Made by a program: the position numbers and the translations under genes. DNA of 64,000 nt, from the NCBI RefSeq assembly GCF_053078305.1, contig NZ_CP166879.1; one strand, 5' to 3'. Of this stretch, positions 17,865-57,567 are shown piece by piece (within the stretch, counting starts at the first letter, position 1; each line of letters begins with the position of its first letter). Under the pieces are notes generated by a model, which was not told the origin of the DNA, did no database searches, and was given only the letters and a program-made list of their open reading frames with translations.

Positions 17865-18379
17865 AACGAGAAAGACTGTTTTATGTACTGAGTCTGCTGC
17901 TGTTCTGTACAACAGCTGGCGCAGAACTGAAAGTGATTGCAGACCTGGGCGGCAGGGATGCCAGCCCCTTTTTTGAGGCGATAAACCGGCAGCCACCGGT
18001 TCCCGCTTCAGTTGTGCCATCACCCTCTTTTCCGCAGGGAGAGGCGGCAATGTTACCGGTCAGTACGCCTGAAATGTCACCCGGAGAGGTTGTGGCGCGC
18101 CGGCTTCAGTTACCGGGCATCGGTGCACTTTTTCTTGTGGGCGATGATGCCCATTCCCGCACATGGCTGCAGATGAATGCAGCAGTACTCAGGGAGCGGA
18201 AGGCGGCGGGAATGGTAGTGAATGTGGCGGATGAGAGCAGTCTGCGCGTACTGCGTGAGCTGGCACCGGGGGTGGTGATGGTTCCGGCATCCGGTTCTGT
18301 ACTGGCCCGCAGGTTACAGATAAGTCATTACCCGGTGCTGATAACGGACAACGGCCTGTCACAGGTACCAGCACCATGA
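17861..18379 (+). CDS. periplasmic ICE transfer-region protein
   Basis: 172-aa ORF with signal peptide, 4-bp overlap with neighbours. Confidence 0.5.
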   Translation: MKRERLFYVLSLLLFCTTAGAELKVIADLGGRDASPFFEAINRQPPVPASVVPSPSFPQGEAAMLPVSTPEMSPGEVVARRLQLPGIGALFLVGDDAHSRTWLQMNAAVLRERKAAGMVVNVADESSLRVLRELAPGVVMVPASGSVLARRLQISHYPVLITDNGLSQVPAP

Positions 18380-18969
18380 TGCCGCTGTCTGCCACTTCTG
18401 CTGCGCTCTCTGCTTCTCCGGTACTGACAGCCTGCCTGGTTCTCAGCCTGCTGGCTGTTGTCCTGGGGCCGGCACTGTGGCGCAGCCGGCGAAAAAAAGC
18501 GTGTGTGAGAACACGCCGGCATCAGCGTTATCGTGCCACGGCCTCACGGGTAATGAAGCGGCTGAACGAATTGCAGGGCGATGCCCGGCGGCTGAAATAT
18601 CTGCGCAAAATCAGTCCGTATGTGTTTGAGGAACTGTTGCTGCTGGCTTTTGAGCAACAGGGGATGCCGGTTATCCGTAACCCCTCATACAGCGGCGATG
18701 GTGGTCTTGATGGTCAGGTGGTGATTAACGGTGAACGCTGGCTGATACAGGCTAAACGTTACGGAAGAACCATTCGTCCGGCACATATTGATGCTTTTGG
18801 CGAACTGCTGCGCCGGAAGGGATGCAGGGGCTTTTTTATCCATACGGGGCGTACGGGGAACATCAGCCGGGCACGGCTGACACTGTGGCCGGATATTGAG
18901 CTGATCAGTGGACAACGTCTGTTGCAACTGCTGAATGGCACCTTACTGAGTAATAAAGGAAGATCATGA
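18376..18969 (+). CDS. membrane-anchored restriction-endonuclease-like (Mrr-cat) domain protein
   Basis: N-terminal TM helix; C-terminal GDGGLDGQ...ERWLIQAKRY matches the PD-(D/E)XK Mrr catalytic-domain pattern. Confidence 0.55.
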   Translation: MMPLSATSAALSASPVLTACLVLSLLAVVLGPALWRSRRKKACVRTRRHQRYRATASRVMKRLNELQGDARRLKYLRKISPYVFEELLLLAFEQQGMPVIRNPSYSGDGGLDGQVVINGERWLIQAKRYGRTIRPAHIDAFGELLRRKGCRGFFIHTGRTGNISRARLTLWPDIELISGQRLLQLLNGTLLSNKGRS

Positions 18970-20233: not shown

Positions 20234-22326
20234 GTAACCGTTATGTGATTGAGGCTCTGCTGCGTCCGGCTGTGGAACTGAATACCGCCGTGGTGGCAGC
20301 AACGGCGGCCGGTGTCTGTGTGACAGCGCCCTGGGCGGTGGCGCTCGCGCCTTCGGTCAGCTATGTCACAGCCGCCGGCTTTGGCGTTCTGGCAGTGGTC
20401 CGTTTCCGACAGGGGATGAAGATCATCCGTTACCGTCGCAATCTGCGCCGGCTGCCCCGTTATGTGATGAGTTCCCGGCAAATTCCGGTCAGCCGTCAGC
20501 GGCTGTTTCTGGGACGCGGCTTCCGCTGGACACAGAAGCACACCCAGCGCCTTCAGGACACGCTGCGACCGGAGGTTGCGCACTATCTTCAGCCGGGCAG
20601 TCTGTACCGGACAGCGCGCTGGCTTGAAATGAAAACGGAGCGCAGTCTTCCCTGGATTGGGCAGCTTCTTCGTCGTGACTCGCCGCTGAATCCCGTCCGT
20701 CCCCTGCCGCCGGTGGGAGGAAATCCTGCCCTGCATGGTATTGAGCCGGATGAGCAGGATGTGACGCTGGCACTGGGTGAACGTGTGGGGCACACCATTG
20801 TCTATGGCACCACCCGTGTCGGGAAAACCCGGCTGGCGGAGTTGCTGGTCACACAGGATATTCGTCGGGGAGATGTCACCATTGTCTTTGATCCCAAAGG
20901 GGATGCGGATCTGTTGCTGCGTGTCTGGGCTGAAGCACACCGTGCAGGCAGGGGCGATGAGCTTTATATCTTTCATCTGGGCTGGCCGGAAATCTCTGCG
21001 CGTTATAACGCCGTGGGGCGTTTTGGTCGTGTGTCGGAGGTGGCTTCCCGTGTGGCCGGTCAGTTATCCGGTGAAGGTAACAGTGCGGCCTTCCGTGAGT
21101 TTGCATGGCGGTTTGTCAACATTGTTGCCCGTGCACTGGTGGCACTGGGGGAGCGCCCAGATTACACGCTGATTATGCGTTATGTGAATAATATTGCCGA
21201 CCTTTATATCCGTTATGCTGGTAAGGTGATCAGCGAACAGATGCCGGAACTGGAAAACGCCATTCTGAATAACATGAATGTACTGGGGGAAGCGGATGTT
21301 CCCCGGACCATGCAGAACCAGCCGGATGCTGTGCGTATCTGGGCCATTGAGGTGGCTCTCAGCAGTGAAGCCGGAAAGAAACTCTATGATCCGATACTGG
21401 ATGGTCTGCGAAGCGCGGTACGTTATGATCGTACCTATTTTGACAAAATTGTGGCATCCCTGTTGCCGTTGCTGGAAAAACTGACCACAGGAAAGACGGC
21501 AGAACTGCTGGCACCTGACTACCTGGATATGAGCGATACCCGTCCCGTGTTTGACTGGGAGCAGGTGATACGTAAAAAGGCGGTGGTGTACATTGGTCTT
21601 GATGCGCTGAGTGACAGTGAGGTGGCCAGTGCCGTGGGTAACTCCATGTTTGCGGATCTGGTGAGTGTCGCCGGGCATATCTACAAACACGGAATGAATG
21701 CCGGTCTTCCGGGAGGGAATGGTACCAAAAATCCGGTTAACCTGCATTGTGATGAGTTTAATGAACTGATGGGTGATGAGTTCATTCCGTTAATCAACAA
21801 GGGAGGCGGTGCCGGTATGCAGGTGACGGCTTACACGCAGACCTCTTCTGATATTGAGGCCCGTACCGGTAGTGCTGCCAAAACGGCCCAGGTGCAGGGT
21901 AACTTTAATAACATGATTATGCTGCGGGTCAGGGAGAACCGGACGGCCGAGTTACTGACGACCCAGTTGTCCCAGGTGGAAATTTATACCAAAACGCTGG
22001 TTTCCGGCCATCAGGACACCGCAGATGTCACGACCGGCCAGGACTTCACATCCAGTACCCAGGATCGTGTTGGTACTGTGAAGGTGCCTTTGCTGGAGCC
22101 GGCAGATATCGTGACCCTGCCGAAAGGACAGGCCTTTGCTCTGCTGGAAGGGGGACAGTTGTGGAAAATCCGTATGCCCCTGCCTGCAACTGATGCAGAT
22201 GACGCGCTGATGCCGGAGAGTATTGCAAAAATTGCAGAGGCCATGCGGCGTAATTACCACACCGGAGAGGGATGGTGGAATGAGACTCCCTCCGTGAACA
22301 TGCCGGAAGGAGAGCAGAATGGCTGA
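20230..22326 (+). CDS. traD: type IV coupling protein TraD (ICE/PFGI-1 class)
   Basis: ORF track 20119..22326; preferred ATG 20230. Two N-terminal TM helices and Walker A GTTRVGKT. Confidence 0.85.
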   Translation: MSNRYVIEALLRPAVELNTAVVAATAAGVCVTAPWAVALAPSVSYVTAAGFGVLAVVRFRQGMKIIRYRRNLRRLPRYVMSSRQIPVSRQRLFLGRGFRWTQKHTQRLQDTLRPEVAHYLQPGSLYRTARWLEMKTERSLPWIGQLLRRDSPLNPVRPLPPVGGNPALHGIEPDEQDVTLALGERVGHTIVYGTTRVGKTRLAELLVTQDIRRGDVTIVFDPKGDADLLLRVWAEAHRAGRGDELYIFHLGWPEISARYNAVGRFGRVSEVASRVAGQLSGEGNSAAFREFAWRFVNIVARALVALGERPDYTLIMRYVNNIADLYIRYAGKVISEQMPELENAILNNMNVLGEADVPRTMQNQPDAVRIWAIEVALSSEAGKKLYDPILDGLRSAVRYDRTYFDKIVASLLPLLEKLTTGKTAELLAPDYLDMSDTRPVFDWEQVIRKKAVVYIGLDALSDSEVASAVGNSMFADLVSVAGHIYKHGMNAGLPGGNGTKNPVNLHCDEFNELMGDEFIPLINKGGGAGMQVTAYTQTSSDIEARTGSAAKTAQVQGNFNNMIMLRVRENRTAELLTTQLSQVEIYTKTLVSGHQDTADVTTGQDFTSSTQDRVGTVKVPLLEPADIVTLPKGQAFALLEGGQLWKIRMPLPATDADDALMPESIAKIAEAMRRNYHTGEGWWNETPSVNMPEGEQNG

Positions 22327-23080
22327 ACCCCGTCGTGAGGTGAACAGAGCAGCACAACCCTCTCCGCCACGTCAGCACGGACTGCTCTGGAATCTGTTGT
22401 GGGGCTGGCCGTGGATGCTGGTCGGGATCCTGTTTTCCTCCCTGCTGCTGAGCCTGCTGGTTGAGTATATCGGGATTGCTTTTTTCTGGCCGGAGCAGGG
22501 GGCAGCACACAGTGAGGCAGTGATGAAGACAGAACTGGGGTGGCTGTCTTCGGAATTCACCCGCAGTCTGCTGCTGTCGGCACCATCGGTAACGGTGACA
22601 GAATGGATAGCAACGGCGTATCAGTGGCTGTTTGTGGAAACAGGTTTTCTGTCGTGGCTGAAGCAGCAAAATGCCGGTGCCGTGGTGGGTAACAGTGTGT
22701 CACAGTACAGTGAGGATGTGGGGCGCTGGCTGAGCCATTATCTGTATGAGTACCTGATGGCCACAGTATATGTCACGGTGGTCACACTGATACGGGTGAC
22801 GATCCTGGTGTTGTCTGTTCCGCTGTTTGTGATGGTGATACTGATCGCGGTTGTGGAGGGACTGGGGCGTCGTGATCTGCGCCGGTATGGTGCTGCGTAT
22901 GAGTCCAGCTTTGTTTATCACCATGCAAAAAAGTCTATTAAACCGGCGATATATATTCCCTGCATTCTTTACCTGTCCTGGCCGACGTCGGTGTATCCGA
23001 ACCTGCTGATATGGCCGGCAGCCATGCTGCTGGGGGTGGCCATCACCGTGACCATGGCATCCTTCAAGAAATATTTATAA
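22319..23080 (+). CDS. ICE integral membrane protein
   Basis: 253-aa ORF with about four TM helices, overlapping traD stop. Confidence 0.6.
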   Translation: MAEPRREVNRAAQPSPPRQHGLLWNLLWGWPWMLVGILFSSLLLSLLVEYIGIAFFWPEQGAAHSEAVMKTELGWLSSEFTRSLLLSAPSVTVTEWIATAYQWLFVETGFLSWLKQQNAGAVVGNSVSQYSEDVGRWLSHYLYEYLMATVYVTVVTLIRVTILVLSVPLFVMVILIAVVEGLGRRDLRRYGAAYESSFVYHHAKKSIKPAIYIPCILYLSWPTSVYPNLLIWPAAMLLGVAITVTMASFKKYL

Positions 23081-23171
23081 TCCACAGAGGCCGGACACCC
23101 TGATGCAAAACTTGTTTTGTGGCAGGGTGTCGGCAGACAAGCCACGCCCTTACGGTCAGTGCGCGTCAGTG

Positions 23172-23357
23172 TCAGAGTAACGACAGCGCCGGAATGACAA
23201 CAATGTTGACGAAAATAATGAACAGAGTGATGGCCCTGATGACGTCATAGATCCACGGGGGGCAACGAGGTTCTTCATAAATGAAAAAATACACAACACA
23301 AACCCAGGTCAGAAGGAACAGGGCCCAGAACGGAAGGGCAGTACGGAGAAATTCCAT
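23172..23357 (-). CDS. small membrane protein in AT-rich insert
   Basis: 61-aa two-TM ORF on the opposite strand in a low-GC segment inside the T4SS cluster. Confidence 0.35.
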   Translation of the reverse strand: MEFLRTALPFWALFLLTWVCVVYFFIYEEPRCPPWIYDVIRAITLFIIFVNIVVIPALSLL

Positions 23358-23463
23358 GCTGATGTGTTTCCTCTTTAAATTGTTAATGCGGTGCCATTAA
23401 CGGGAAACAGTAGTGATGCCGTGTTTTAATAAACAGGAATAAATCATTCAGGCTGGAATAAAT

Positions 23464-24030
23464 TTATTTGAACAGAATCTGGAACAGCGAGATGCAGAAA
23501 CTGGCTATGCTGACAGCCCCCAGAACATAGTTTATTCTTCTGGCCAGCTTCTCTTTTTTCTGACAGGAATTATAAATGTCATGAAGTGACATGGCTAATA
23601 ACTGCACTTCTGACTCACTGACATCGGGTAAACTGATTATATTTTGTAACTGTTGTTTTATATCCTCAGGGAGTTCTGTGAATGGGGCATATTTCTCGTA
23701 CCATGTGATCAGTTCTCTGACCCGGGGGACGTGATGTGAAAAGTTGTTATCAGTCAGAAAATCATTGAAAACAGACAGCAGTGCGCTTTTGATATGTTCA
23801 TGACTGGCAGACCAGCGTTCGGCCAGTAAACAGATATCATTATTTTGTAAACTGCCATTTATTATCGCTTCTTTCAGTTTTTTCTCGTACTTTCTCTTTT
23901 TTGATGATCTGTCTATATCATTGATAGTCAGGATAATGAATATCAGGCCGATGAGATAGACTGTCAGGAGAATGATTATACTGATGATGTCGTTCATGCC
24001 AGGAGTTCCGGGTTGTTTGCCTTCATCCAC
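23464..24030 (-). CDS. membrane protein in AT-rich insert
   Basis: 188-aa ORF with N- and C-terminal TM helices, low GC, convergent to the T4SS genes. Confidence 0.45.
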   Translation of the reverse strand: MDEGKQPGTPGMNDIISIIILLTVYLIGLIFIILTINDIDRSSKKRKYEKKLKEAIINGSLQNNDICLLAERWSASHEHIKSALLSVFNDFLTDNNFSHHVPRVRELITWYEKYAPFTELPEDIKQQLQNIISLPDVSESEVQLLAMSLHDIYNSCQKKEKLARRINYVLGAVSIASFCISLFQILFK

Positions 24031-24136
24031 ACCAGTGTATTCTCCCGTAAAAATTTTCTGTTTTGCAAATAGAGTTTATCGCTGATCCAGTCCCCTGCCT
24101 TACGCATCCTGTACGCACTGTTTAACTCTGACGGAG

Positions 24137-24484
24137 GTGCGTATGTTTTCTTTTCCGGCATCATCCTGCCGTGCCGGCCGTCTGGCCGGTGCCGTGGGGA
24201 TGCTGTTTCTTTTGTCCTTTGCATTACCTGCGCAGGCTGCCGAAAAGGATGAACTGGCCACTGTAATGCGCCAGCTTGACCACGTGCAGGCAGCGCTGGA
24301 GCGGGCCAGAACGGCCTCTCTGCAGGCTTCTTCACAGGGGGAACGCTACTTTTTTGATTATCTGCGTGCCCGTGCAGATTTGCAGACCATTCGTGACGGT
24401 ATTGACCATTATCTGGCCCCTTCCCGGGCGCAACCCCGGTCTTCCGCAGCCGTGATCGGTGACTACCGGCGGGAGCGTCCCTGA
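24137..24484 (+). CDS. RAQPRD-family ICE protein
   Basis: Signal peptide; RAQPRS motif near the C-terminus. Confidence 0.65.
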   Translation: MRMFSFPASSCRAGRLAGAVGMLFLLSFALPAQAAEKDELATVMRQLDHVQAALERARTASLQASSQGERYFFDYLRARADLQTIRDGIDHYLAPSRAQPRSSAAVIGDYRRERP

Positions 24485-32181: not shown

Positions 32182-32397
32182 ATGAGGAGCGATATCGATT
32201 TTCCGGGACCACTGTATCCATCGCTGTCAGATCAAATTGCCAGTGAACCTGTGCTGTTTCTGGCGGGAGCTGTGGGTGTGGCTGTGTTTTCATGGGTGCT
32301 TGCGAATTTTTCATGGATGCTTACGAATGTACTGGCCCGGATGCTGTCAGGGTTGTACTCCCGTGTCAGGAGGAGGGTAAAGAACTCTGAAAAATAG
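32182..32397 (+). CDS. small membrane protein
   Basis: ORF track 32134..32397; ATG 32182 after GGGAGAGGGG RBS. Confidence 0.4.
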   Translation: MRSDIDFPGPLYPSLSDQIASEPVLFLAGAVGVAVFSWVLANFSWMLTNVLARMLSGLYSRVRRRVKNSEK

Positions 32398-32566
32398 CGG
32401 GAGAGAGGTGCTGCCCTGATGCCTTCGTTGTATTCTGCGACGCTGTTGGTGCCCGTATTTTGTGCGGGTACCGTACAGAATCACCGCATGAGCCATTGCT
32501 GAGACGCTCACTTTTTTTCGCATGCATTACCGGAGTGATGGCTCAGCCGGTGATTTTGGTGTTGAG

Positions 32567-32767
32567 ATGAGAGCCAGTATGGGAAAGCGATATAAAATAA
32601 CTGCGACAATAATCAAACCAGGCAATATGCCGGTTCAGTGGCTGCGTTACCAGGATGAAAAAATGACTCAGGATGAATGTGAAAAACTGTTTGCGCCCGC
32701 AAAAGAGCCGGGACGGTATATTGGCGTCAGGGTGGAGGACTTCCGGTGTGAAGTGGTGAAGGCCTGA
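32567..32767 (+). CDS. small hypothetical protein
   Basis: ORF track 32522..32767; start uncertain. Confidence 0.3.
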   Translation: MRASMGKRYKITATIIKPGNMPVQWLRYQDEKMTQDECEKLFAPAKEPGRYIGVRVEDFRCEVVKA

Positions 32768-33087
32768 GTATGAAAATAAAAACCTCCGGCGGAGTCGGAG
32801 GGGGCAAAAACAGATAGTCCCGGAGTGTATCTGTGTAAATGGTGTTATTGGTATAATAATGGTGGTAAAGACCACGGGAGAATTTATTCATTTTATTCGT
32901 CATGAAATCAACGGTAATAGTGTGTTTCTGTGACGGGAATAAAAAAATACAGCACCGCCGATGACCCGGTGCTGAAAACAGGTTAAATGTAGTGGGCACA
33001 TTTCCGGTAATATCAGGAACAGCATGTTATGGTTATAAAAGCATATACCGGGAGTGTGCCCTGGCACTGTGATGTTCTGGTTGTCTT

Positions 33088-33116
33088 TTGACCATTTTCC
33101 GGGGACGAAATATAAG
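33088..33116 (+). promoter_or_regulatory. candidate sigma70 promoter (TTGACC, 17-bp spacer, TATAAG)
   Basis: Near-consensus -35 and -10 hexamers with 17-bp spacing, about 35 bp upstream of the lipoprotein start. Confidence 0.4.
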
Positions 33117-33151
33117 CTGTTCTGCGTTAACACTTAATAATGAGAGATTGT

Positions 33152-33601
33152 ATGCTGAAAAAAACAATTCTGGCGTTATGTATTTCCGCACCATTTCTGG
33201 TTGCGGGCTGTGATGATGCGACAAAGGAGAATGTAAGTAAGAAGGCGGCAGATATAAAGGAAGCTGCGCAGACTCAACTCAGTGATGTGAAGGATGCCGC
33301 GGAGGAAGTGAAAATGCAGGCTGTCGGAAAGGTGGCAGAGGTTTCTGAAGCGGCTCAGTCCGGGCTCAGCGAGGTGAAGGATGCCGTGGAGGAAGTGAAA
33401 ACACAGGCAGCCGGAAAGGTGGCAGAGGTCTCTGAAGCGGCTCAGTCCGGGCTCAGCGAGGTGAAGGATGCCGTGGAGGAAGTAAAAACACAGGCAGCCA
33501 GAAAGGTGGCAGAGGTCTCTGAAGCGACTCAGTCCGGTCTCAGTGATGTGAAGGATACCGCTCCTGAAAAGGGGGCTGAAATATCCGTAACGGAGGAGTA
33601 A
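33152..33601 (+). CDS. lipoprotein with tandem internal repeats
   Basis: ORF track 33140..33601; ATG 33152 after GAGAG RBS; lipobox LVAGC. Three tandem copies of an about 20-aa (60-bp) unit AEVSEAAQSGLSEVKDAVEEVKTQAAGKV. Confidence 0.6.
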   Translation: MLKKTILALCISAPFLVAGCDDATKENVSKKAADIKEAAQTQLSDVKDAAEEVKMQAVGKVAEVSEAAQSGLSEVKDAVEEVKTQAAGKVAEVSEAAQSGLSEVKDAVEEVKTQAARKVAEVSEATQSGLSDVKDTAPEKGAEISVTEE

Positions 33602-33705
33602 AAGAGCGCCGTCGGTGCAGTTTTTTTCAGCACCCGGTGACACGGAATTTTATATACGGGGCATGTCTGTCTCTTTAATAAATCAGCATATTTACCGGAT
33701 ATCCG

Positions 33706-34425
33706 ATGCCCTGTACCTGCGCTGTCATTATGGCTCTCAAACAGACAATGCTTTGTCTGGAGCACAGGAACTCTGTCATACCTGCCGGCACAATGCTTCT
33801 GATTGCCGGGCATCTGCGCCCTGCTTTTCAGGCTCATACCGGACGTTTCCTTATCGCTGACCTCAGTGAGGAGGTGGTGAGGCGGTATCTGCGGTTCTGC
33901 ACGCCATTATCCGGTATGGCAGTCAGCCCGTCGTCTTTGCTTTTACAGATCCGGCCACAGATGTCCGTGCTGGCGGAATGTCTGATCAGACAACTTATTA
34001 CAGATGAACCATCGCCGGTGTACTTCAGGGATGCGGTGGCTTTTTCCAGTCTGGCGCTGTTTGAGGAACATCCGGATTTCCATGCCCTGCTCACGGGGTG
34101 TATCCGGAGCTGCACTGTCCGGGTGAAGAATATTATCAGTGCTGATTTGTCCCGTCCATGGATGCTGGGTGAAGTGGCCAGTCTGTTATATATAAGTGAG
34201 AGTTTACTGAAGAAAAAGCTTCAGGAAGAGCTGACGACCTTCAGTGAGCTTCTTCTGAAAGAGAGAATGCAGTATGCCGTTCAGCTTTTGTCTGCGGGAG
34301 AAAACCGTATTTCCCGGGTGGCAGAGTTGTGTGGCTATGCCAGTGCTTCTTATTTTATTTCTGTGTTCAGGCGTTATTATAGTATTACCCCGAATCAGTG
34401 GCTTCCTGTGATGCAACCGGATTAA
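33706..34425 (+). CDS. AraC-family transcriptional regulator
   Basis: C-terminal AraC-type HTH signature (...SRVAELCGYASASYFISVFRRYYSITPNQW); start position uncertain. Confidence 0.7.
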   Translation: MPCTCAVIMALKQTMLCLEHRNSVIPAGTMLLIAGHLRPAFQAHTGRFLIADLSEEVVRRYLRFCTPLSGMAVSPSSLLLQIRPQMSVLAECLIRQLITDEPSPVYFRDAVAFSSLALFEEHPDFHALLTGCIRSCTVRVKNIISADLSRPWMLGEVASLLYISESLLKKKLQEELTTFSELLLKERMQYAVQLLSAGENRISRVAELCGYASASYFISVFRRYYSITPNQWLPVMQPD

Positions 34426-37714: not shown

Positions 37715-39233
37715 ATGACCACAAATAACTATCTGGAATATTTTCTGACTCTGCTGGGCTGGGTGGTGAATAACGGTCTGTGGAATGTGTTGATCAGCAC
37801 AGGACTGTTTGCCCTGCCACTGGCATTCAGGATCATCGGGATCTGGCTGAAAGTCAGGGAAGAAGGTGCGGATGAGGGAAACAAAGGGATGCTTTCCCTG
37901 CCGCGTATTGAGCATGTTCTCTATGGTGCTTTTTTTGTGATGATATCCTGCTGTGTTCCTCTGGTACAGGTGACGCTGGATACGCTGTCATTCGATAAAT
38001 CCAGGGCACAGACCTGTGGGGTATGGACACCTGAAGAGCCCGGAGAGACGGGGTACAGTGGGGTGATCAGCAGTATAGGGGATCAGACTGCTGCAGCCCC
38101 GGTATGGTGGGTGGTGGTTCATAAATTGTCGAAAGGTGTCACCCAGGCGGCAGTGGCTTCGATTCCGTGCCGGCCTGATTTGCGCCAGTTGCGTTTTGAG
38201 ATCCAGCGAACGTTTATAGAAAACAGGGCACTTGCTGATGAGCTGCAGGACTTTATGAACGACTGTTATTCACTGGCACTGTATGTGGAAACAGCGTGAT
38301 CAGGGGCAGAGTAAAGATAAAAAAGTGCTTGATGATATCTCCTGGATAGGGAGCGCCACATTCATGCAGGGGGATTACGGGACGCTGCAGTCAAAGATGC
38401 CGCGGGCTGCGTTCCCGTGGAATACAGCACGTGACAGCGGACGACCGGATACGGGGCGGGGAGGCTATCCGACATGCCGGGAGTGGTGGAGTGACAGTAG
38501 TGTGGGGCTGAAAAAACGGGTCATGGAGGAGGTCAGTGACCATTACTGGTTACGTCTGTCAGCTGCAATGAAGATGATTGGCAGTAGTCAGGTGGATTAT
38601 AAGGAGGAGGTGATCAAGCGTCTGGTGAGTCCGGCAAACCTGACGCTCTCTCAGGGGGGAGAGGTGTATCGTGGCTATGGTGGCAATGCAGATATGACGA
38701 CTATGAATGCGGTGGCCCGGATTGCGGGAACGGCGGGCAGTGCGGTAGCAGCACTGGGTGCGTTTCCGGCACTGGATGCAATGCGGCAGGCACTGCCGAT
38801 GGTACAGTCGATAATACTGATGGCGATTTACATCATGATACCGCTGATTCTGGCGTTTGCGGCATATGAACTGTCGACGTTAATCACACTGACGTTTGTG
38901 GTGTTTGCGGTACACTTTCTGACGTTCTGGTGGGAGCTTGCACGGTGGCTTGACAGCTGGATGCTGACGGCGCTGTACAGTTCGGATACACATACCCGGT
39001 TCAATATGATGGGATTCCAGAACACATCGGATGATCTGATAATGAATCTGGTGATGGGGACAATGTTTCTCGTCTTGCCGGCAGTGTGGCTGGGTGCGTT
39101 GTCCTGGGCTGGGGTGAATATGGGCTCTGTGGTTGGTGATACTTTTGGAAAAAGTACAAGTCATACCTTTCAAGCTGCATCAAAAAGTGGTGATCTTGCA
39201 TCTAGTGGAATTTCAAAAGGTATGAATAAATAA
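37715..39233 (+). pseudogene. traG: TraG-like conjugal transfer protein (TraG_N-type), apparently split by a frameshift near 38283-38299
   Basis: Two overlapping ORFs in different frames (37715..38299 and 38283..39233) together give about 510 aa with multiple TM helices typical of TraG_N. Could be a genuine frameshift or a sequencing error. Confidence 0.6.
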
Positions 39234-39235
39234 GA

Positions 39236-39267
39236 AAAAGTCCAGTATAATTTATACTGGACTTTTT
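39236..39267. terminator. bidirectional rho-independent terminator after traG
   Basis: Perfect inverted repeat AAAAAGTCCAGTATA-ATT-TATACTGGACTTTTT, with A/T tracts on both sides. Confidence 0.65.
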
Positions 39268-39671
39268 GAATAAGTATCATCATATGAAAGGCGTTTTTAT
39301 TTGTGTTGGTGAAATAAATGGAGATTCAATTTCTGATACAAATGGTGATTTATAAGATAGGTCTAAGGGCATGTCGTTATTATTTTTAATAACTGAAGCA
39401 GATTGTTTATTAGCCAAAAATGCACAAGTGACCTTTTTTACAAGGGAGTTGAAGGTCCATGGATTATCCATCGGCTTACAACGCCACATTGCTTTTTCAG
39501 ATTCGTTATTCATATCTATACCCTCGGCGCAGGATAAATAACACAGTGTTATCATACGTCTTGTATGATAAATGTGCAATCACATGTCTTCCATTTGATG
39601 AGAGGCTGTGACGCCACATTACCTTGGGACACGGGGATTCTGTTGAAATGATCCATCTGAGAATGTATCTT

Positions 39672-39692
39672 GTTGTTATGTTATAACATGGG
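39672..39692. promoter_or_regulatory. Zur-box-like palindrome upstream of ykgM
   Basis: Palindrome ATGTTATAACAT inside TGTTGTTATGTTATAACATGG, about 15 bp upstream of the ykgM start. ykgM-ykgO is the classic Zur-repressed operon. Confidence 0.4.
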
Positions 39693-39701
39693 TGAAGACA
39701 G

Positions 39702-39965
39702 ATGAAACCAAATATCCATCCTGAATACCGCACAGTAGTGTTCCATGACACGAGTGTGGATGAGTACTTTAAAATAGGTTCTACCATCAAAACAGAGCGC
39801 GAGATTGAACTGGACGGTGTGACGTATCCGTATGTGACGATTGACGTTTCCTCCAAATCGCATCCGTTCTATACCGGTAAACTTAGAACGGTGGCATCAG
39901 AAGGCAATGTTGCCCGCTTTACTCAGCGTTTTGGTCGTTTCGTTGGGACTCAGAAGGGGGAATGA
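39702..39965 (+). CDS. ykgM: 50S ribosomal protein L31 type B (zinc-independent paralog)
   Basis: 87-aa protein [31 protein letters not shown]... lacking the Cys zinc ribbon; followed by an L36 paralog. Confidence 0.9.
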
Positions 39966-40105
39966 TGAAAGTGCTTAATTCTCTGCGAACGGCCAAAGAG
40001 CGACCTCCTGACTGTCAGATAGTGAAGCGCAAAGGGCGATTGTATGTAATTTGTAAATCCAATCCTCGTTTTAAGGCTGTTCAGGGACGCAAAAAAAAGC
40101 GTTGA
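39965..40105 (+). CDS. ykgO: 50S ribosomal protein L36 paralog
   Basis: 46-aa [49 protein letters not shown], start overlapping ykgM stop. Below the ORF-track size cutoff. Confidence 0.85.
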
Positions 40106-40588
40106 TTCCGAAGCTTGTACATAGACTGTGAGCAGTGCTCAGACATGATTTATGTCGGTACATTAGCATTGATGTGTGTCGGCATTAATTAATTTTTGTG
40201 GATGCGTTCTATCATTCATATCTTCCTGTGCTTTGCTGCTTGATGGGAAATCCTCTTCCAATATCACGGCGATGTTCACTTTTTGCGTAAGTGGACATCG
40301 CTGCGTATTTTTTGTTAGTTGGGGTTTGAGGCTCAGTGGAACAATAACCGCCGTTAAGCGGTCATTTTAAATAGCCAAAAATCAACCCAAAAATCAACCA
40401 GCCAATTTACATCGTGAATCTGCGTTCTTGGCTATCTGTTTTGGGGGGGCCAAGTTGGCTTTAGTCATCCTGGCCGTTTGCGGAACAAAAGACGTTGTTG
40501 ATCTCAACAGATTGATTTACCTGTTATTGACCATTCAATTGAACCGCTTAACCGCCTTTTGAGTTCCACTACTCCCCAAACCCCTAGT

Positions 40589-41683
40589 TTAGTTTTTAGT
40601 TTCCAACGGTGGTAATTTTTCAAGTGTCAGTAGTTCCTGCCCCTTTACCCGACGGCATTGGGAAGCTGCATCCTGAAGTTTTTCGCGAACGTTATTATCA
40701 TAGTCGGGATCCAATAGTTGGTATTGAAGACTATCTTTGTATGATTGAATGATATTTAGTGGACAGATAAGGCGTATATCACCGAGTGAATAAAGTTTTA
40801 CTGCCTTAAGTAAATAGTATTTTTCATCTGAAGAGCGAGCACTCTGCCAGGCTGAGTTTCTGAAATATTCAGCAGGATATGAGGTGGTCGGTATTCCATA
40901 AACATGAGGAGTCAAGTCCATGATTCCTGATATTTTAAGGAAAATAGTTAGTATTAGAGCTGGAACCATATGCACAAACGTAAAAATGAAGGCTAATATT
41001 CCAGCCATGATTCCGCCAGTCACAATTACCTGATTTAGCAAGCTGGTGCGGGTTCTTAACCTGAGGAAAACAATACAGGGAATAAGTGAAAAAATAATCA
41101 GAAGAATTGATAATACTATAACACTCAACACCTGCCAGAACTCGTTTATTCCTTCCGGGAATTCCAACGTATGAAGAAATAACTCAAGAGGAATAATATA
41201 TATGCAGGCTGCGTGGGTGAATAGCGTTGACTGTACAATATGCATGGAAAGAAACTTTTTGATCTGCTTCCACTTACCCTCTGTGCTTATCTGTCTATAA
41301 GTAATAGAGCCATTGAGACACAGAGAAAGTATAAAACTGCAAATCCAGATAATGCTTAACTGAAGTAGCACATATTGTTCAATTTCTTTTCCTGCGTTGT
41401 ACATGAGGAAAAAATAACCAAAAAATATCAGTGTTGATAATAGCGAGGTCAGAAGAACGATTTTGATGTTGTTTTCCGTCAGTTCATTCCGGAAATCACT
41501 TTCCCCTGGATAATTGGAAATATAGAATCCTGCCACTAGTGAGGGCATAAATAACGCCATGCAAAATAGGAGTACGCTGATACAAGCAAAGACCATCAGA
41601 TAACTGAACAATGATGAAAAAGAAATACTGTCAAAAAAAAGTCCTGTTTGTCCAATACGCGCAAGATGTGACCATATAAACAA
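40589..41683 (-). CDS. polytopic membrane protein of unknown function (low GC)
   Basis: 364-aa ORF with about 8 predicted TM helices and a C-terminal soluble tail; AT-rich codon usage unlike surrounding DNA. Confidence 0.5.
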   Translation of the reverse strand: MFIWSHLARIGQTGLFFDSISFSSLFSYLMVFACISVLLFCMALFMPSLVAGFYISNYPGESDFRNELTENNIKIVLLTSLLSTLIFFGYFFLMYNAGKEIEQYVLLQLSIIWICSFILSLCLNGSITYRQISTEGKWKQIKKFLSMHIVQSTLFTHAACIYIIPLELFLHTLEFPEGINEFWQVLSVIVLSILLIIFSLIPCIVFLRLRTRTSLLNQVIVTGGIMAGILAFIFTFVHMVPALILTIFLKISGIMDLTPHVYGIPTTSYPAEYFRNSAWQSARSSDEKYYLLKAVKLYSLGDIRLICPLNIIQSYKDSLQYQLLDPDYDNNVREKLQDAASQCRRVKGQELLTLEKLPPLETKN

Positions 41684-42026
41684 TGCTACAATAGAAGTTG
41701 ACGCGATCGGTGTAAGGATTGTTAAAAACCAAGCACATAGTTTTATAAAATGTTTGTTTACTCTGTAATTTTCTATATTTTAGTGTCCATTCAAAGTTTG
41801 ACATATGATCTAGCTAATGACTCCATTTTTGGGCATTGCTTACCAACATACCTCTTATGTGTATTACTGTGAAGGAGAACGATGAATAGCGACTATTCAC
41901 GTGGATCTCCACAACAACCATCAATATTCCAGCCATTATCATTCCCGGTATCCTTACCGGCATTACCTGTAGAATCGGTTATTGTTGTTGCCCTATAACA
42001 CACTTTTGTGGCTATAACGTTTATAG

Positions 42027-42521
42027 CTATCGACAAAAAACCATATTAATTCTTTTGGAAAAAAGAAAATAAGGTATCCATATAACAACACCAAATATTC
42101 CACTCACTAATAATCTGATATTATCTGAATCCAGCTGTACGTCAAAAAGAATAGCCGGTAATAAAGTAAGATAGAGAGCAATAATCAGTCCTGTTGCATA
42201 ATAAGCGATCATGGCTTTTCGAGTTCCTTTTTTGCGTCTGAAAAACAACCACGTTGCATAAAGGGAAACAATGAATCCACATATCAGCAACACAAATGCC
42301 CCCATAGCGTAATAAGATAAAAAGCCAGTTTCATTGAAATAATTGAATGCAGTTATGGTAAAACTGTAAAGTTCAATAGTACTACCAATAACACCCAAGA
42401 TAAGTCCCAGAGCAGGAAGATATAATAGTCCATTAATTTTACTTAACTCTTCTCTTTCACAGGCATCACACAATCCCGACTCTTTGTTTGCTTCTGACAT
42501 TTTACATTTTATACATTCCAT
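42027..42521 (-). CDS. zinc-ribbon plus four-TM membrane protein of unknown function (low GC)
   Basis: N-terminal CxxC...CxxC (MECIKCK...CDACE) followed by four hydrophobic helices. Confidence 0.5.
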   Translation of the reverse strand: MECIKCKMSEANKESGLCDACEREELSKINGLLYLPALGLILGVIGSTIELYSFTITAFNYFNETGFLSYYAMGAFVLLICGFIVSLYATWLFFRRKKGTRKAMIAYYATGLIIALYLTLLPAILFDVQLDSDNIRLLVSGIFGVVIWIPYFLFSKRINMVFCR

Positions 42522-42606
42522 TTTTTATTCCATTATTCATTGCGTTACGATAATGTTTAGTTTTTTAAACATCCCCCACCACATGTATGGGGATTGTTGC
42601 AAATCT

Positions 42607-42862
42607 CACTTAGGATCTGATGGTGTTTTCTTACGGGAGTTAAATTTATCTATTAAATTAAATACTATTGTAGCTAATGTTATTGCTGTTCCTGCTATAC
42701 AACCAAAAACGATAGCTCTTTTAAACTGATTCACTGGAAAATAAAACCCATCACCTTTAAAAAATAAAAGATTGAAACCGCCCCTCCCAGAAATAGTAAC
42801 ATGACTATAGATGATAAACAGCTATAAAGGAACAATATCACATAACTATATAGTTGTTTCAT
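42607..42862 (-). pseudogene. degenerate orphan cdiI-like immunity gene (frameshifted paralog of 43100..43348)
   Basis: DNA is homologous to cdiI; translation from the ATG at 42862 stops after about 42 codons, and the conserved C-terminal part (...IVFGCIAGTAITLATIVFNLIDKFNSRKK) continues in another frame. Confidence 0.5.
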
Positions 42863-43103
42863 TTTTTCTTATCCTCTGACGAACCTTTCGGTTTATTGAG
42901 TTATTGGCTCCTTCAGGTAACTCACCTTTGGCAAGTTTATCCAGTCCTGCCTGCTTCTGTTCCGAGGTGAGATTATTGGCATCAGCATACTGATTCCATG
43001 AGGAAACCGCCTGACCATAACTCACCATTCCTGATGGAAGACTGAGCGAGTTATTCTCAACAACAATCCTAACCGCAAAGGTTGGGATTGTTGTTAATCT
43101 CAC
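42846..43103 (-). CDS. orphan CdiA C-terminal fragment (VENN-containing, truncated)
   Basis: 85-aa ORF containing VENNSLS and a segment (SWNQYADANNLTSEQKQAGLDKLAKG) paralogous to the start of the main CdiA-CT; lacks the Gly-rich toxin core. Confidence 0.5.
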   Translation of the reverse strand: MRLTTIPTFAVRIVVENNSLSLPSGMVSYGQAVSSWNQYADANNLTSEQKQAGLDKLAKGELPEGANNSINRKVRQRIRKNETTI

Positions 43104-52842: not shown

Positions 52843-54582
52843 TCAGAAATCCCGGAACAGATTAAAACCGGCTGTCACATCACTCGTCATAAAACCCGCC
52901 GGCTTTGAAAACGGACGACCGATGAAAACGTCATAATCCGTACTGAACAGTTGCCCCCTCAGCCCCACAACACCACCGGCCAGATGACGTCCCACCAGAT
53001 ATTCACTGCCGGCTCCCCCCACCTCGCCGTAATCCATTCCCAGATATAACGCCTGCTCCGGCAGTGGCGTACGCCAGGCCAGGTCGTTGCGGATATACCA
53101 GCCGTTACTGGCATTCAGCGTTCGCTCCCCGTCAAAACCACGAACCGTCCAGCGGTTACCGATGGCAAACTGTTCCTGTGGGGTCAGCGGGGTATTGCTC
53201 AGCTGGCGCTGATACCGGAAGGAATAACTGAAGGGCTGCTCTGCCAGTGTAAAGGGCAGATTAAAGGATGCATTCATCTGCAGGATCTTACTGAGCGCCG
53301 TTGCCTCACCGAAGATTTCCTCCGGTGCCGGCTGTGCACCAAACCAGCGGGTTCCCCGTTGCCAGCTGACACCAGCATCCAGTGTGGCCTGAGAAATATA
53401 ATGACGGTGCTGCAGCCCAAGTCGCCAGGCCGCTGTCTGCCGGCGCTGCACCTGGATTTCCGTATCATTAATGTAGTTACGCGACCTGCGGGCCTGAACA
53501 TCGTAAGTCAGCACCGTTTTCTGCGTCCCGTTACGATGCAGTACCCGGCTCAGCTGCATGCCCAGATTCTGACTCTCGCCACTGTACTGGTAATCCTCAA
53601 CCGCACCAGCTACCGTCTGATGGTAATCGTAATCACTGGCGGTGACGGAAAACTGCCAGTAACCGAAAGGCACAGAGTAATGGGCCGTGTAGTTTTTACT
53701 GCCCTTACCCCCGTAATGTGGAAAATTATGGGTGGCAGAAACATACAGCAGGTCACTCAGGGAAAAAGGATTATCCAGAGAAAATGTTATACCACCGAGA
53801 TAACGCCCTGTGCTGCGGGTACCTGAATCATCAAGCGAAAACCCCAGTCGCCAGTATTTATCCTGTTTACGGGTAATAAGAATATCACTTTCCCCTGGCT
53901 GCTCACCGGGCACAATTTCCATATCAGCCTGCACACCCGGCAGTCGTTGCATATTCTCCAGCCCCTGCTCAATGTCCCGTAAATCCAGCAGAGAACCTTC
54001 GTGTGCCGGGAATGAGGAATACAACTGAATATAGTCATCACTGTCCGGTGTCAGACGCACATGTCGCACAACACCGGGAATAACAACCAGCCGGAGGATA
54101 CCGCTTTTTAAATCCTGCGAAGGTGCCAGAACACGGGTGGTGACATAACCATGATCGACAAGACGGTTCTGCAATGTACTCATCAGCAGATTAATTCCTT
54201 TCGCCCCCAGGCAATGCCCGACCGCCCCGTTGGCGATTTTTTGTAAAGGCAGCCAGTGTGGTAACGCATCAGCCCCCTTCAGTTCCGTCTGTTTAATCTG
54301 AAAACAGGGCGTTTCAACAGGAAAATTAATCTTATGGGCAAAAGAGCCAGGTGCAGAAAGGCGAACATCAGGGGCTGAAGGCGTCAGTTGTTGCTCAAGG
54401 GCTTCCTGACGCTGCTGCTGAATGATAAATGTATCCTCTCCACTACGCCGGATATCCGCGGCCTGAAGAGATAAAGGCGATAATAAAACAGACATCAGTG
54501 TCAGTGATAAAATGAACGGACAGCGCCGGAATAAGCTTTGTTCCTCAGCCCTCTCGTTCCTGCAACATAATTTTCCAGCCAA
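52843..54582 (-). CDS. cdiB: CdiB, TpsB-family outer-membrane transporter
   Basis: 579-aa ORF directly upstream of cdiA on the same strand; signal peptide, POTRA-like region and C-terminal beta-barrel ending ...FNLFRDF. Start may instead be at an internal Met (about 54495). Confidence 0.85.
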
Positions 54583-55203
54583 ACGAAAAACCTTTTATGC
54601 ATGCTGTGTCAACAATCACCAGCCTCCTGACGATGTCTGCCGCCATTTTGGCAATAACACACTACCGCCCTTCCGGAATTCCCCGTATCAACCGGTACCA
54701 GAATGCTGAGTAACCAGTCAGCCAAATCAGGCTGGTTTAATTTTGCTCATTATAGAATAATGATCTGAAAAATATCAATATAACAGGTGTATCGATCGTA
54801 ATTGCAGATGCTTGCAGATCTTTATTCCAGTATATGTTGTCAAGCTGGAATATTTAGAAATATATATCCATGACTAATGTGGAAATACAGAAAATTATTC
54901 CAGTGAATGCTTTTTATACGGTCTCCTGGCACAGAAAATGGTGATTTTTGATTTGAATCATTGAAATCAGTTCTGCTAATAAGAAGACATGCTGAAAAGC
55001 CGATTTTCAGGGGGTGATTGAAGGGATTGTGAGTTTTTCCTTCGGCTTTTAACGTAACTTCCTGTTTTCCTGATATTCCACGGCAAGATTAATTTTTAGC
55101 GGAGCAGAATGAATAAAATCTTCATCTGGTGTTTTTGCTGCGCGTAAATGCAGGTGTAACTGTGGATGTTATCCACTGAAGAGCTGCTGATGAGGATGAA
55201 GAC

Positions 55204-55776
55204 ATGCTGACTAAAAAAATGTTACTCGTTTGTGCTTCGTGTGTTGCGCTGAGTGCCTGTTCTGCACAGGAAATTGCAGAGCTGAACAGGCAGATAAGTG
55301 ACGGTGCATTTGCTGTGACAAAAGTACTGAACGTAGGTGTAAACCAGGCAGATGATGATCTCAAATATCTGTCTCAGGCACCCCGGGCAAAAAGAGAGAA
55401 ACGTGATCATGTCATAGAAGTCCCTGTTGATGTGGATACAGCTGCGGGAAGACTGAAACGGTACTATAAGTTTTATTCAAATGAAGAAGTCGATGCGATT
55501 CGTAATAACGGACATGCGAACGGGAAGTGGGCCGCAGCAGCAATAAGTCAGAACGGACATATGTGGGATGCCATGCCCGGTAGTTATTATAAAATGGGCA
55601 GTGACTGGGATGGTGGCGAATTTGATGATCATCTGACGCTTGAACTTGAAAAAAATGGCAAAGGAAGTCGGATATATATAACGTATGCATCTCCGGCACC
55701 GGGGCATCTGAAAGATAAATTTATTGAGCCATTAGTTAAACGTGTGAAGGATGTGGCTGAAGGCCGGGTCAGGTAA
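55204..55776 (+). CDS. hypothetical lipoprotein
   Basis: Signal peptide with lipobox LSAC; divergent from cdiB. Confidence 0.55.
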   Translation: MLTKKMLLVCASCVALSACSAQEIAELNRQISDGAFAVTKVLNVGVNQADDDLKYLSQAPRAKREKRDHVIEVPVDVDTAAGRLKRYYKFYSNEEVDAIRNNGHANGKWAAAAISQNGHMWDAMPGSYYKMGSDWDGGEFDDHLTLELEKNGKGSRIYITYASPAPGHLKDKFIEPLVKRVKDVAEGRVR

Positions 55777-55795
55777 CGTGTACTATATAATATAT

Positions 55796-55828
55796 CCCCT
55801 GGCATACTGCCAGGGGATGTTGTTTTTC
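55796..55828 (+). terminator. rho-independent terminator
   Basis: CCCCTGGCA-TACT-GCCAGGGG stem followed by T tract. Confidence 0.6.
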
Positions 55829-56159
55829 TGTATGTCATTTTATGATGATACCTTTGATATTCTTATAGATGTTTAGGTGAACTGTTAATGATAAATATTG
55901 TCCGATATTATACTTTCTTGTAAGTATATTTTGGGGAGGTTATTTTTATTAAGGTTTTAAATGTTTTATTTTGTTCGCTTTTTCTTTCTCTGTTTGTTGT
56001 TTCTTGCTATTACAACTATCTTGTGATTGTTTATATGCTAAACATAATTCTGATGTTTTAGTACATGTAACATATTGACACATTCTTTATCTGTTTGTAT
56101 TTTACGTGTTAGCAGTGTTTTTATTTTGACATTGCTGTTAACAACCGATTGCTGGAGAG

Positions 56160-56444
56160 GTGAAAATGAATAAAATGTTCAGTCAGTGGATTGATTTTGA
56201 TGAGATGATTACTCCGAAGATCATCAAGGTAATATACTGGTTTTTTCTTTTTATTACAGTGGCCGGTGGTGTTATAGGTATGATAGCCAATCCGTTTGTC
56301 GGACTGCTTGGTCTTATTATGGGTATTATTGGTCTGAGGATTGGGTGTGAAATGATAATTCTTCTTTTTAATATTTATAAGCAGGTTAAAAAGATTGCTG
56401 ATGCGGTACCGGATAAAATAAACGAACAGGCTGAGGATAGTTAA
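56160..56444 (+). CDS. small membrane protein
   Basis: 94-aa ORF with two Gly-rich TM helices, preceded by GGAGAGG RBS; low-GC region. Confidence 0.5.
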   Translation: MKMNKMFSQWIDFDEMITPKIIKVIYWFFLFITVAGGVIGMIANPFVGLLGLIMGIIGLRIGCEMIILLFNIYKQVKKIADAVPDKINEQAEDS

Positions 56445-56603
56445 TTATCTCAGAATAAACATTGATGAATGGTAATAACAGGGACTGTTAATACTGTCCC
56501 TGTTATTTTTTCTGCAGACTGTTTTCTGTTCTTCCTGGTTATGTTCTGAGTGATGATGATTGACGCCTTTTATACGCTCTGATATGCTCAGAATGCATTA
56601 TCT

Positions 56604-56840
56604 GTCGCTTCGGCGACCACCAATGCTCCATAAGTGGTCTGAGAGGAGCGCCTTCGGGTGGCCACATCCCGCTTCGGTGGGCACCAATGTTCCGTTGATC
56701 TGAGAGGAACGCCTTCGGGTGATCAACACCCCCGTAACCTGAAAGGGGATGTGCAGCCAGGATGTTTCTGGTGGTGGTAAATCTGCCCACCTTTGAGAGC
56801 AGATATCGTCAGTCATGATGATGAAGGTTTCTTTTAACCG
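56604..56840 (+). repeat. structured repeat element, copy 2; left direct repeat flanking the recombinase module
   Basis: Near-identical to 58871-59105 and to the last two sub-units plus tail of 12233-12528; the similarity continues about 20 bp past the element. Confidence 0.55.
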
Positions 56841-57467
56841 CGCCCTTTATTACGGGCAATACACAGCAGTGGTTGTGTGATCCTTATCTATCCGGTGATG
56901 CCGGAATGTTTTTACTGCGTAATGGCGGTATTGACTTCTTTTATTCTTTTCATTTGTTTGCCAGCACTTCCTGCGACTGTGCGCGCTGTATAAGACCATT
57001 TGAAATTTGGTCGCTTACGCGTGTACCTGGCGTCTGAAGCTGCGCGGCGTCACTTTCGTCAGCGTGTCACGATGACAAAGTGACGCACGCGCGTCTGCTT
57101 AACGAACCCGCACGAACTGCCGTTTCACGTGATGTTTTTTAACATTTGAAGAAGTGACCCGGCGTGAGAGTGTTTTTTCAACCTCTTCTGCAAATTTACG
57201 GACGATTTTGTGAATAACGTCCATAAATGGTTTTTTGCAGAATTAATTGTTTTTTAAGGAGTTTTATGTAGTGAGATGCCGAATCGGCGATACCACTTAT
57301 TAGAGGTGGTGTCGGGGGCGACCTGGAGACAGGTACAGCAAATGCTGCAGTCGGTGTGCAACACCGATTTGTTACCCCTCAATACCTAAACAATCTGCGC
57401 TACCCTGGCGCACAGGCAGTCACTACCCGAAGGATCGCAACGTTTAACCGTGTCGTCAGGGAGAAAT

Positions 57468-57518
57468 GCAGATGAGTTTTTCTGTTGTGTTCACGGCACA
57501 ACAGAAAAACTCATCTGC
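57468..57518. other. perfect 22-bp inverted repeat with 7-bp spacer; candidate recombinase target site
   Basis: GCAGATGAGTTTTTCTGTTGTG-TTCACGG-CACAACAGAAAAACTCATCTGC, about 50 bp upstream of the recombinase start; no T tract after it, so not a typical terminator. Confidence 0.6.
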
Positions 57519-57567
57519 CGAACGTACAGCTGTTTAAGGTAAAAATTATTATGTGCAGGAGAAGTTG

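Follow-up and report, generated by a model that had tools for sequence, protein, structure and literature searches.

Elements of the SXT/R391 family carry hotspot cargo in variable regions that are located between conserved transfer genes. A comparable site has been described as GI-Hotspot 8, a defence hotspot which comprises the interval between traD, together with the TIGR03747 gene, and the RAQPRD gene. Known defence systems occupy it in 29.6% of instances, and beyond Pseudomonas it is also present in Serratia, Salmonella and Klebsiella (PMC12629846). In ICEclc the slot holds orf67800, which is not required for transfer, and the position is described as permissive to the loss of genes (PMC10018362).

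We analysed the same slot in a stretch of 64,000 nucleotides from contig NZ_CP166879.1 (assembly GCF_053078305.1), which is called the window in the following. Since the slot and its behaviour were already known, the E. coli (STEC) element described here mainly confirms the hotspot rule. The new part is the occupant, a protein of a small family which matches no library, for which a confident structural model was obtained, and which is found in the same slot in at least five diverged elements from E. coli, Salmonella and Klebsiella.

The conjugative element and its transfer genes

A chromosomal element in E. coli O22:H8 strain 154 matches the window at 99.7% identity. The strain 154 element is located beside tRNA-Phe and comprises a tyrosine recombinase (integrase), a TraI-domain protein (relaxase), an SPI-7-type DnaB (dnaB-PI), ParB and the full complement of TIGR037xx transfer genes. 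Because of this gene set and the tRNA-Phe site the element is assigned to the MPF-G integrative conjugative elements of the SPI-7/PAPI-1/ICEclc family. According to NCBIfam and Pfam matches and to the RefSeq annotation of the 99.7% identical locus, the transfer genes are arranged in the order TraD (TIGR03754 type), TIGR03747, RAQPRD, TIGR03758, TIGR03745, TIGR03750, TIGR03746, TIGR03749, TIGR03752, TIGR03751 and a VirB4-like ATPase.

The two genes of interest, the larger of which is here named X and the smaller S, are flanked by the TIGR03747 and RAQPRD genes. On its left side the slot is bounded by the conserved gene for a TIGR03747/DUF4400 (DtrJ-like) ICE membrane protein (22319-23080, plus strand), which is supported by TIGR03747 (E 2.8e-92), DUF4400 (E 3.4e-69) and the RefSeq annotation of the 99.7% identical strain. 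Its final ~180 bp are inside a recombination patch that is described below. The right conserved boundary is the gene for a RAQPRD-family ICE protein (24143-24484, plus strand; TIGR01690 E 9.6e-30, PF09686 E 2.4e-26), for which the RefSeq start maps to 24143 and which leads the downstream transfer operon. The otherwise co-directional orientation of the transfer neighbours, which had been pointed out in an earlier note on this DNA, was found as described for TraD, TIGR03747, RAQPRD and TIGR03758.

A variable cargo site

The TIGR03747-RAQPRD interval was surveyed in 62 loci from other species that contain both boundary genes, in which its length ranges from 178 to 8999 bp or more (up to >10 kb). 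Further other-species loci had no RAQPRD gene inside the fetched flank. In 61 of the 62 loci the G+C content of the interval is below that of the backbone. The intervals contain genes as diverse as those for Abi_2, a YhcG nuclease, a ParA-like ATPase, DprA, an ETX/MTX2 toxin and proteins with DUF4225, DUF2913 or DUF7000, and in Serratia oryzae (L040) a toxin-antitoxin pair fills the slot. Plasmid-borne or excised relatives carry there an FxLYD protein (Citrobacter), a DUF5710 protein (Klebsiella), an MFS transporter together with a ferritin-like gene (Pantoea), the ars operon (Salmonella SGI-4) or a UvrD helicase (pKLC102), and e.g. in Marinobacter, Halomonas and Yersinia the slot is without a credible gene.

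The segment of the window is accessory and probably dispensable cargo in a known slot and not a structural component of the T4SS. This reading stands on the unrelated contents of the slot, on GI-Hotspot 8 and on the dispensable orf67800. As a structural part of the T4SS gene X fails in universality, as a member of its family is present in none of the 62 surveyed loci and no more than 21 of 68 E. coli elements have an intact X; a conservation of the segment throughout the family as known structural T4SS components, which would have spoken against the cargo reading, was looked for and is not seen. Since no surveyed other-species locus carries it, X is regarded as a recurrent but minority occupant of the slot. 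In position and in variability of content the slot agrees with GI-Hotspot 8, while a recognised defence or anti-defence occupant was not found in it.

The earlier note had spoken of a likely cargo insertion. Its cargo part holds, whereas a discrete recent insertion is not supported, as a comparison with related ICEs yielded no insertion boundaries and four diverged alleles of the segment are present in E. coli. At the slot edges there are no terminal direct or inverted repeats beyond pairs of 10-24 nt, which are expected by chance, and no transposase ORF was found.

Base composition and layout of the segment

Between the flanking genes the slot (23081-24136) has a G+C content of 0.432, compared to a mean of 0.522 for the window. 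In 300-bp windows the values drop to 0.39-0.41 at 23400-24149 and are 0.52-0.60 on either side, which bears out the reported segment of about 1 kb with low G+C (43% versus 52-60% in the flanks). The dip amounts to about 2 sd (sd 0.063, 600-bp windows across the whole window), and the G+C content falls still further in the cargo regions at 38.8-43 kb and 54-58 kb, so that the minimum of the window is not located here. The AT-richness is mostly confined to 23358-24030, with values of 0.402 for the 188-aa ORF (39-40% for the larger gene), 0.473 for the 61-aa ORF and 0.37 for the AT-rich spacer that separates S and X (23358-23463). The stretch 23081-23171, on the other hand, has 59% G+C and includes a hairpin.

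This conserved G+C-rich hairpin (23090-23134, with an inverted repeat at 23094-23131) is located between the convergent TIGR03747 and 61-aa genes. Its fold was calculated to -27.5 kcal/mol on the plus strand and -23.1 kcal/mol on the minus strand (z -4.5 and -4.0), and none of 200 shuffled sequences was as good. In allele L004 the stem is preserved through change on both sides. The hairpin was not called as an intrinsic terminator, and a T-run is absent. It is probably a two-way transcript-end or stability element.

In the earlier note the two genes were termed convergent. With respect to each other they are arranged in tandem on the same strand, and it is the X-S unit that converges on the TIGR03747 gene and diverges from the RAQPRD gene. 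The region between X and the RAQPRD operon (23998-24142, 145 bp) is a putative divergent control region, as judged from the alignment of six E. coli loci and their identity profile, and includes a conserved block at ~24040-24087. A control function is only proposed for it, since a promoter consensus scan of 24003-24142 gave no match; the only site has its -35 hexamer at 24002, and no convincing promoter sites were obtained for X-S. A third ORF of 56 aa (23994-24164), which overlaps the start of X by ATGA and was considered as a coupled upstream gene, was dismissed because it is broken in L003 and L004 and thus not conserved.

Genes S and X

Gene S (23172-23357, minus strand) encodes 61 aa with two predicted membrane helices and a conserved E-P-x-x-P-x-W loop; it is identified by conservation of its ORF and is annotated by RefSeq in some genomes. 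The ORF is intact and has the same AAGAGGAAA upstream in the window and in L002, L003, L004, L005, L114 and L115; every E. coli class except L113 has an intact S. L112 has an annotated diverged allele of 71 aa and L094 a positional analogue, both with the loop motif in the form E-P-x-x-P/A-x-W. The dN/dS values for S range from 0 to 0.85. Outside the E. coli alleles and L094, X is found without S. From this pattern of conservation S is probably a real gene.

The ORF of gene X extends to a GTG at 24030 (23464-24030, minus strand, 188 aa). However, its homologues all begin with MNDIIS at an internal methionine (M12), and RefSeq calls proteins of 177-178 aa in two other lineages. The true start is therefore most likely the ATG at 23997, which would give a protein of 177 aa (23464-23997, minus strand). 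The two minus-strand ORFs of 61 and 188 aa named in the earlier note thus both exist, the larger of them probably with a shorter product, and the description as membrane proteins agrees with the prediction of two hydrophobic helices per ORF.

X is a real gene, as indicated by dN/dS values of 0.29-0.36, about 100 relatives with common motifs and an AlphaFold2 model with a mean pLDDT of 91.3, which was calculated with 45 sequences. The structure prediction, which the earlier note had suggested as a check, resulted in a high-confidence membrane-hairpin model. In the model two long helices (2-47 and 128-176) each extend out of the membrane into the cytoplasm, and the head is made up of four shorter helices. 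The modelled helical head measures ~125 aa and lies between the N-terminal and the C-terminal membrane helix. According to the positive-inside rule the head would be cytoplasmic, as basic residues follow the first and precede the last helix. X is thus predicted to be an inner-membrane hairpin protein.

The X family

A word-based homologue search with X found relatives in E. coli only, and the wider family was revealed by an exhaustive profile search of 1.84 billion representative sequences. That search returned 100 relatives at E<=1e-3, 32 of them at E<=1e-10. Nearly all are 170-230 aa in length and match from end to end. They share a common architecture with the motifs LAERW and EPFxELPExIxxQL ... 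LAxSLxxLYxxNQ, the first part of the latter with an invariant proline.

Neither X nor S nor any of 45 X-family members had a consistent match in Pfam, NCBIfam, PADLOC or PHROGs. With PADLOC there was nothing below E 0.007 for X and no match at all for S, and no exclusion family that resembles X was found in Pfam or NCBIfam. A profile search of PDB sequences with X returned only designed coiled coils at E>=0.004, and sequence and fold searches of the PDB gave generic helical bundles only. Three family members used in tblastn searches of phage and plasmid collections remained without a match. In the source databases the names that were looked up are either 'hypothetical protein' or absent. The X family is described in no library or paper that was searched.

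Five further members could be placed on contigs that are long enough for an analysis of their neighbourhood; P0016 was placed on no contig and several other members are on contigs too short for context. Four members, P0017, P0028 and P0029 from Klebsiella sp. LTGPAF-6F and other Enterobacteriaceae and P0020 from Salmonella enterica, occupy the same TIGR03747-RAQPRD slot. They diverge from the RAQPRD gene and converge on the DtrJ-like gene, and their slots are AT-rich as well (G+C 0.40-0.43 versus 0.52-0.58 for the locus). The slot loci with an X-family member in this orientation comprise the four E. coli alleles, L094, L100/L101, L103-L105 (Klebsiella sp.) and L110 (Salmonella). Outside the slot, members are found beside a restriction enzyme (RE_AlwI), beside ParE, in a chromosomal AT-rich islet of 1.3 kb and in an island that also encodes an integrase and an S24 peptidase. 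For the members in L107 and L097 no T4SS gene is present among the genes called within 6 kb on either side. In L097 three neighbouring ORFs of similar size were considered as tandem paralogues, but only one of them matches the family profile and the idea was rejected.

Across the diverged elements the X proteins of the slot share 23-37% identity, compared to 32-85% for the TIGR03747, RAQPRD and TIGR03758 proteins. The clearest case is the pair L100 and L103, in which the backbone proteins are 76-85% identical but the X proteins only 35%. From this comparison of sequences the turnover of X points to allele replacement rather than slow drift.

Exchange and loss of the X-S unit

The X-S unit exists as four alleles in E. 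coli, represented by the window, L003 (92% identity at the amino acid level), L004 (75%) and L112 (about 61%). The slot of L004 has diverged about equally with its backbone. Between the window and L003, by contrast, a patch of 1.2 kb (~22900-24090) shows 91-100% identity, while the backbones are mostly 56-88% identical. The identity climbs from 0.69-0.79 to 0.90-0.93 from ~22900 on, and the right edge of the patch is at ~24090. Correspondingly, the dS values between window and L003 are 0.10-0.11 for X and S and 0.88-0.98 for the two flanking genes. The identity of the patch and the contrast in dS therefore show that homologous recombination has moved the X-S unit between lineages of the element.

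The S region was found in 68 of 5426 complete E. coli genomes, and X is intact in 21 of these. At least 22 more E. coli genomes retain only an X remnant of 57 or 76 bp. Elements with 99.5% identity to the window have a 9-bp tandem repeat in place of the body of X (~23537-24015), and the L005 class has a clean deletion of X (~23520-24020). In L113 the 5' half of S is lost and X is intact. As judged from these sequences, X and S have each been lost independently, X through two independent types of deletion, and the present distribution is shaped by homologous exchange and deletions.

Possible functions

We slightly favour the view that the X-S unit, a separate occupant of the known slot on the opposite strand, has a conflict role at the host inner membrane. 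The unit would start in the region divergent from the transfer operon and end at the conserved hairpin. It would have a promoter of its own within the 145-bp region that it has in common with the transfer operon. Judged from its orientation it may be expressed independently of that operon, in ordinary element-bearing cells. Acting at the inner membrane, the products would guard the cell against incoming DNA and would not build pilus or channel. Phage defence or superinfection exclusion would be the most likely form of protection; they are ranked first because of the published content of the hotspot and because X also occurs away from any T4SS. The alleles of X turn over much faster than the backbone, and such a pattern is typical of conflict genes. 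Outside ICEs, the neighbours of X-family members, e.g. RE_AlwI and ParE, are of a conflict type as well. On the other hand, neither X nor S has homology that ties it to any function, and the frequent deletion would equally fit costly or useless genes. The negative results with PADLOC, PHROGs, Pfam and NCBIfam for 45 family members and with tblastn of phage and plasmid collections also speak against a conflict role, as does the minority status of X in the species survey.

A more far-reaching proposal, which is made tentatively and is more doubtful than the conflict role as such, is that single-gene, membrane-anchored immunity proteins form a new family, of which X (by itself or together with S) is the founding member. 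These would block or abort incoming phage or rival-element DNA, prefer the traD-RAQPRD hotspot and evolve by allele replacement. Should this be true, with a rival element as the target, the PAPI-1/ICEclc/SPI-7 family would have in X its first named exclusion determinant. X is a well-defined candidate, cheap to test, for phage defence or for the exclusion function of this element family.

Entry exclusion in the narrow sense, an attractive rival, would mean that X, with or without S, blocks the entry of DNA from the T4SS of a related element into a cell that already holds the element. Several features of X are consistent with it: it is a predicted small inner-membrane protein with a cytoplasmic domain, it is located inside the transfer cluster in the exact slot in at least five ICE lineages, and its alleles diverge much faster than the backbone and are exchanged. 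For Eex, the exclusion determinants are cytoplasmic according to work cited in the reference list of PMC5812530. Since X is on the opposite strand, it could also be expressed while the transfer operon is silent, and for the exclusion genes sfx and eexC expression does not depend on the transfer activator (PMC11493245). An exclusion index of ~298 has been reported for PAPI-1, to which no gene was assigned (PMC5297154). We nevertheless consider it unlikely as the function of X, which only 21 of 68 E. coli elements have in intact form and none of the 62 surveyed loci contains. Moreover, OkiPb01696 holds two element copies with identical X, SCU-171 has two elements with intact X of ~94% identity, and two places were found in six of the seven genomes with an intact module of the window type; this genomic evidence gives no indication of a lowered acquisition of second copies. 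The traG gene (73-82% identity) has no high-identity patch that would match the 91-100% of the slot, but specificity could rest on few residues. Family members without a nearby T4SS (L107, L097) and the lack of a match to exclusion families in Pfam also argue against entry exclusion. A role as a non-essential accessory or regulator of transfer, in which X would tune assembly or timing by way of its head, bound to TraD, the TIGR03747/DtrJ-like protein or control proteins of the operon, appears rather improbable. It would fit the predicted membrane-anchored cytoplasmic domain, the position and orientation of X, which are fixed beside the RAQPRD operon promoter region in at least five lineages, and the finding that the deletion of several genes in the T4SS region of ICEclc had a small or no effect on transfer (PMC10018362). 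X is, however, absent from most members of the family and repeatedly deleted in E. coli elements whose flanking transfer genes are annotated as intact, homologues exist outside ICEs, and its divergence far exceeds that of the putative partners.

Two further readings are given still less weight. X or S could be part of a toxin or addiction module, or of other cargo of benefit to the host such as for envelope stress tolerance, whereby the deregulated protein would damage the membrane and stabilise the element. Both proteins are small and hydrophobic, the genes are AT-rich, the slot of Serratia oryzae L040 holds a toxin-antitoxin pair, and ParE is encoded beside one member of the X family. But no antitoxin-like partner or antisense RNA was identified, no toxin or antitoxin family was matched, and X and S have each been lost without the other, which is not expected for a toxin-antidote pair; this reading seems improbable to us. 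That the ORFs are chance products or decaying remnants of an AT-rich promoter region is hardly credible and is largely refuted for X, which has ~100 relatives, enough covariation for a model with a pLDDT of 91 and a dN/dS near 0.3. S is intact with a ribosome-binding site in alleles down to ~60% identity, also where X is deleted. That S is often not annotated by RefSeq, that the third ORF (56 aa) is not conserved and that deletions are frequent would be in line with non-function.

Comparison with known systems

The slot and its occupants can be compared with several described systems. ICEclc is similar in that a gene without matches, orf67800, has the TIGR03747/DUF4400 gene (orf68241) on one side and the RAQPRD gene (orf67231) on the other. 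In contrast to X, orf67800 encodes 134 aa and has no predicted membrane helix (PMC10018362). The profile search returned X-like proteins only, and a similarity of orf67800 to X or S was therefore not detected.

With the SXT/R391 elements the locus shares the principle of permissive fixed sites in a conserved conjugation backbone, at which accessory or defence genes can be swapped, but these belong to another element family and the sites are others. The exclusion proteins Eex of SXT/R391 and TraS of F are inner-membrane proteins, each paired with a TraG/VirB6-like partner of the donor. X resembles them as a small inner-membrane protein that is encoded among transfer genes, has fast-diverging alleles and a predicted cytoplasmic domain. 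It differs from them in that it has no sequence relation to either, is not universal in its element family, and in that co-resident copies are common.

A further counterpart is GI-Hotspot 8. In Pseudomonas this site often contains CBASS III, type III restriction-modification, Gabija or Lamassu systems, whereas here it holds only two genes for small membrane proteins that are without a match in the defence library. As in GI-Hotspot 8 of PAGI-2, of PAGI-3 and of LESGI-3, the content of the slot varies between related islands.

Recombination patch and gene X

A comparison of the window with the related E. coli elements L003 and L111 revealed a 1.2-kb patch (window 22900-24090) of 91-100% identity, while the remaining backbones are mostly only 56-88% identical. 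Besides most of the slot between the TIGR03747 gene (22319-23080) and the RAQPRD gene (24143-24484), the patch takes in the terminal ~180 bp of the former gene. No second patch of that kind could be identified in 15 kb of compared transfer genes, with the exception of one 200-bp window at ~36268, which exhibits 94% identity.

In E. coli elements which are 99.5% identical to the window, a 9-bp unit repeated perfectly in tandem (TTGCCCGTA, 6.8 copies) has taken the place of the body of gene X (23464-23997, minus strand). In L002 the repeat lies at 2739-2799, and the sequence equivalent to window ~23537-24015 is missing. The region containing the repeat spans 2071-2160 bp depending on the strain, which suggests that the copy number of the repeat varies among strains. 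The repeat does not occur in the window.

In many E. coli strains the chromosome harbors a second element of this family at another site (genomes compared: NZ_AP042574.1, NZ_CP054363.1, NZ_CP075665.1 and NZ_CP067426.1). In some strains both elements are of the same type, in others the two backbones differ, and in one pair of the latter kind gene X is gone from one partner.

Other occupants of the slot

In Klebsiella and in several species of Xenorhabdus (loci L009, L031, L045, L046, L062 and L074), the slot frequently holds a gene for a DUF5710-type protein. The protein is encoded on the minus strand, and like gene X its gene adjoins the RAQPRD gene. Intact copies comprise 230-247 aa, the copy in L062 is broken into smaller ORFs, and the Xenorhabdus proteins start with MLRIDLNVPD. 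In two Serratia species the slot is occupied by a plus-strand gene (L015 and L016, 10964-11150) encoding a 61-aa protein with two membrane helices. No similarity was detectable between this protein and that of gene S (23172-23357, minus strand, 61 aa); the slot may repeatedly be filled by small membrane proteins with two helices.

A probable backbone gene and other cargo regions

A Mrr_cat restriction-endonuclease-like gene (18376-18969) is located amid the transfer genes upstream of traD. Because the domain is found at the same position in seven distant relatives (L008, L010, L011, L100, L103, L104 and L105), the gene looks like a conserved backbone gene and not like cargo.

Two larger cargo regions of low G+C content (minimum 31-33%) are located at ~38800-43000 and ~54300-58400. 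According to the annotation of strain 154, an E. coli O22:H8 isolate, the genes in these regions include those for a DUF2778 protein with a Hcp-family T6SS effector, a YadA-like adhesin, a GNAT/DUF1778 pair, a dolP-like lipoprotein, a N-6 DNA methylase and ArdC.

A second variable site (~32200-34400) separates the conjugative ATPase gene from the TIGR03757 gene. Strain 154 carries genes for an AraC-family regulator, a DUF1187 protein and hypothetical proteins there, and L111 the iha adhesin/siderophore receptor gene. This site may be equivalent to the published TraU-TraC hotspot (GI-Hotspot 3).
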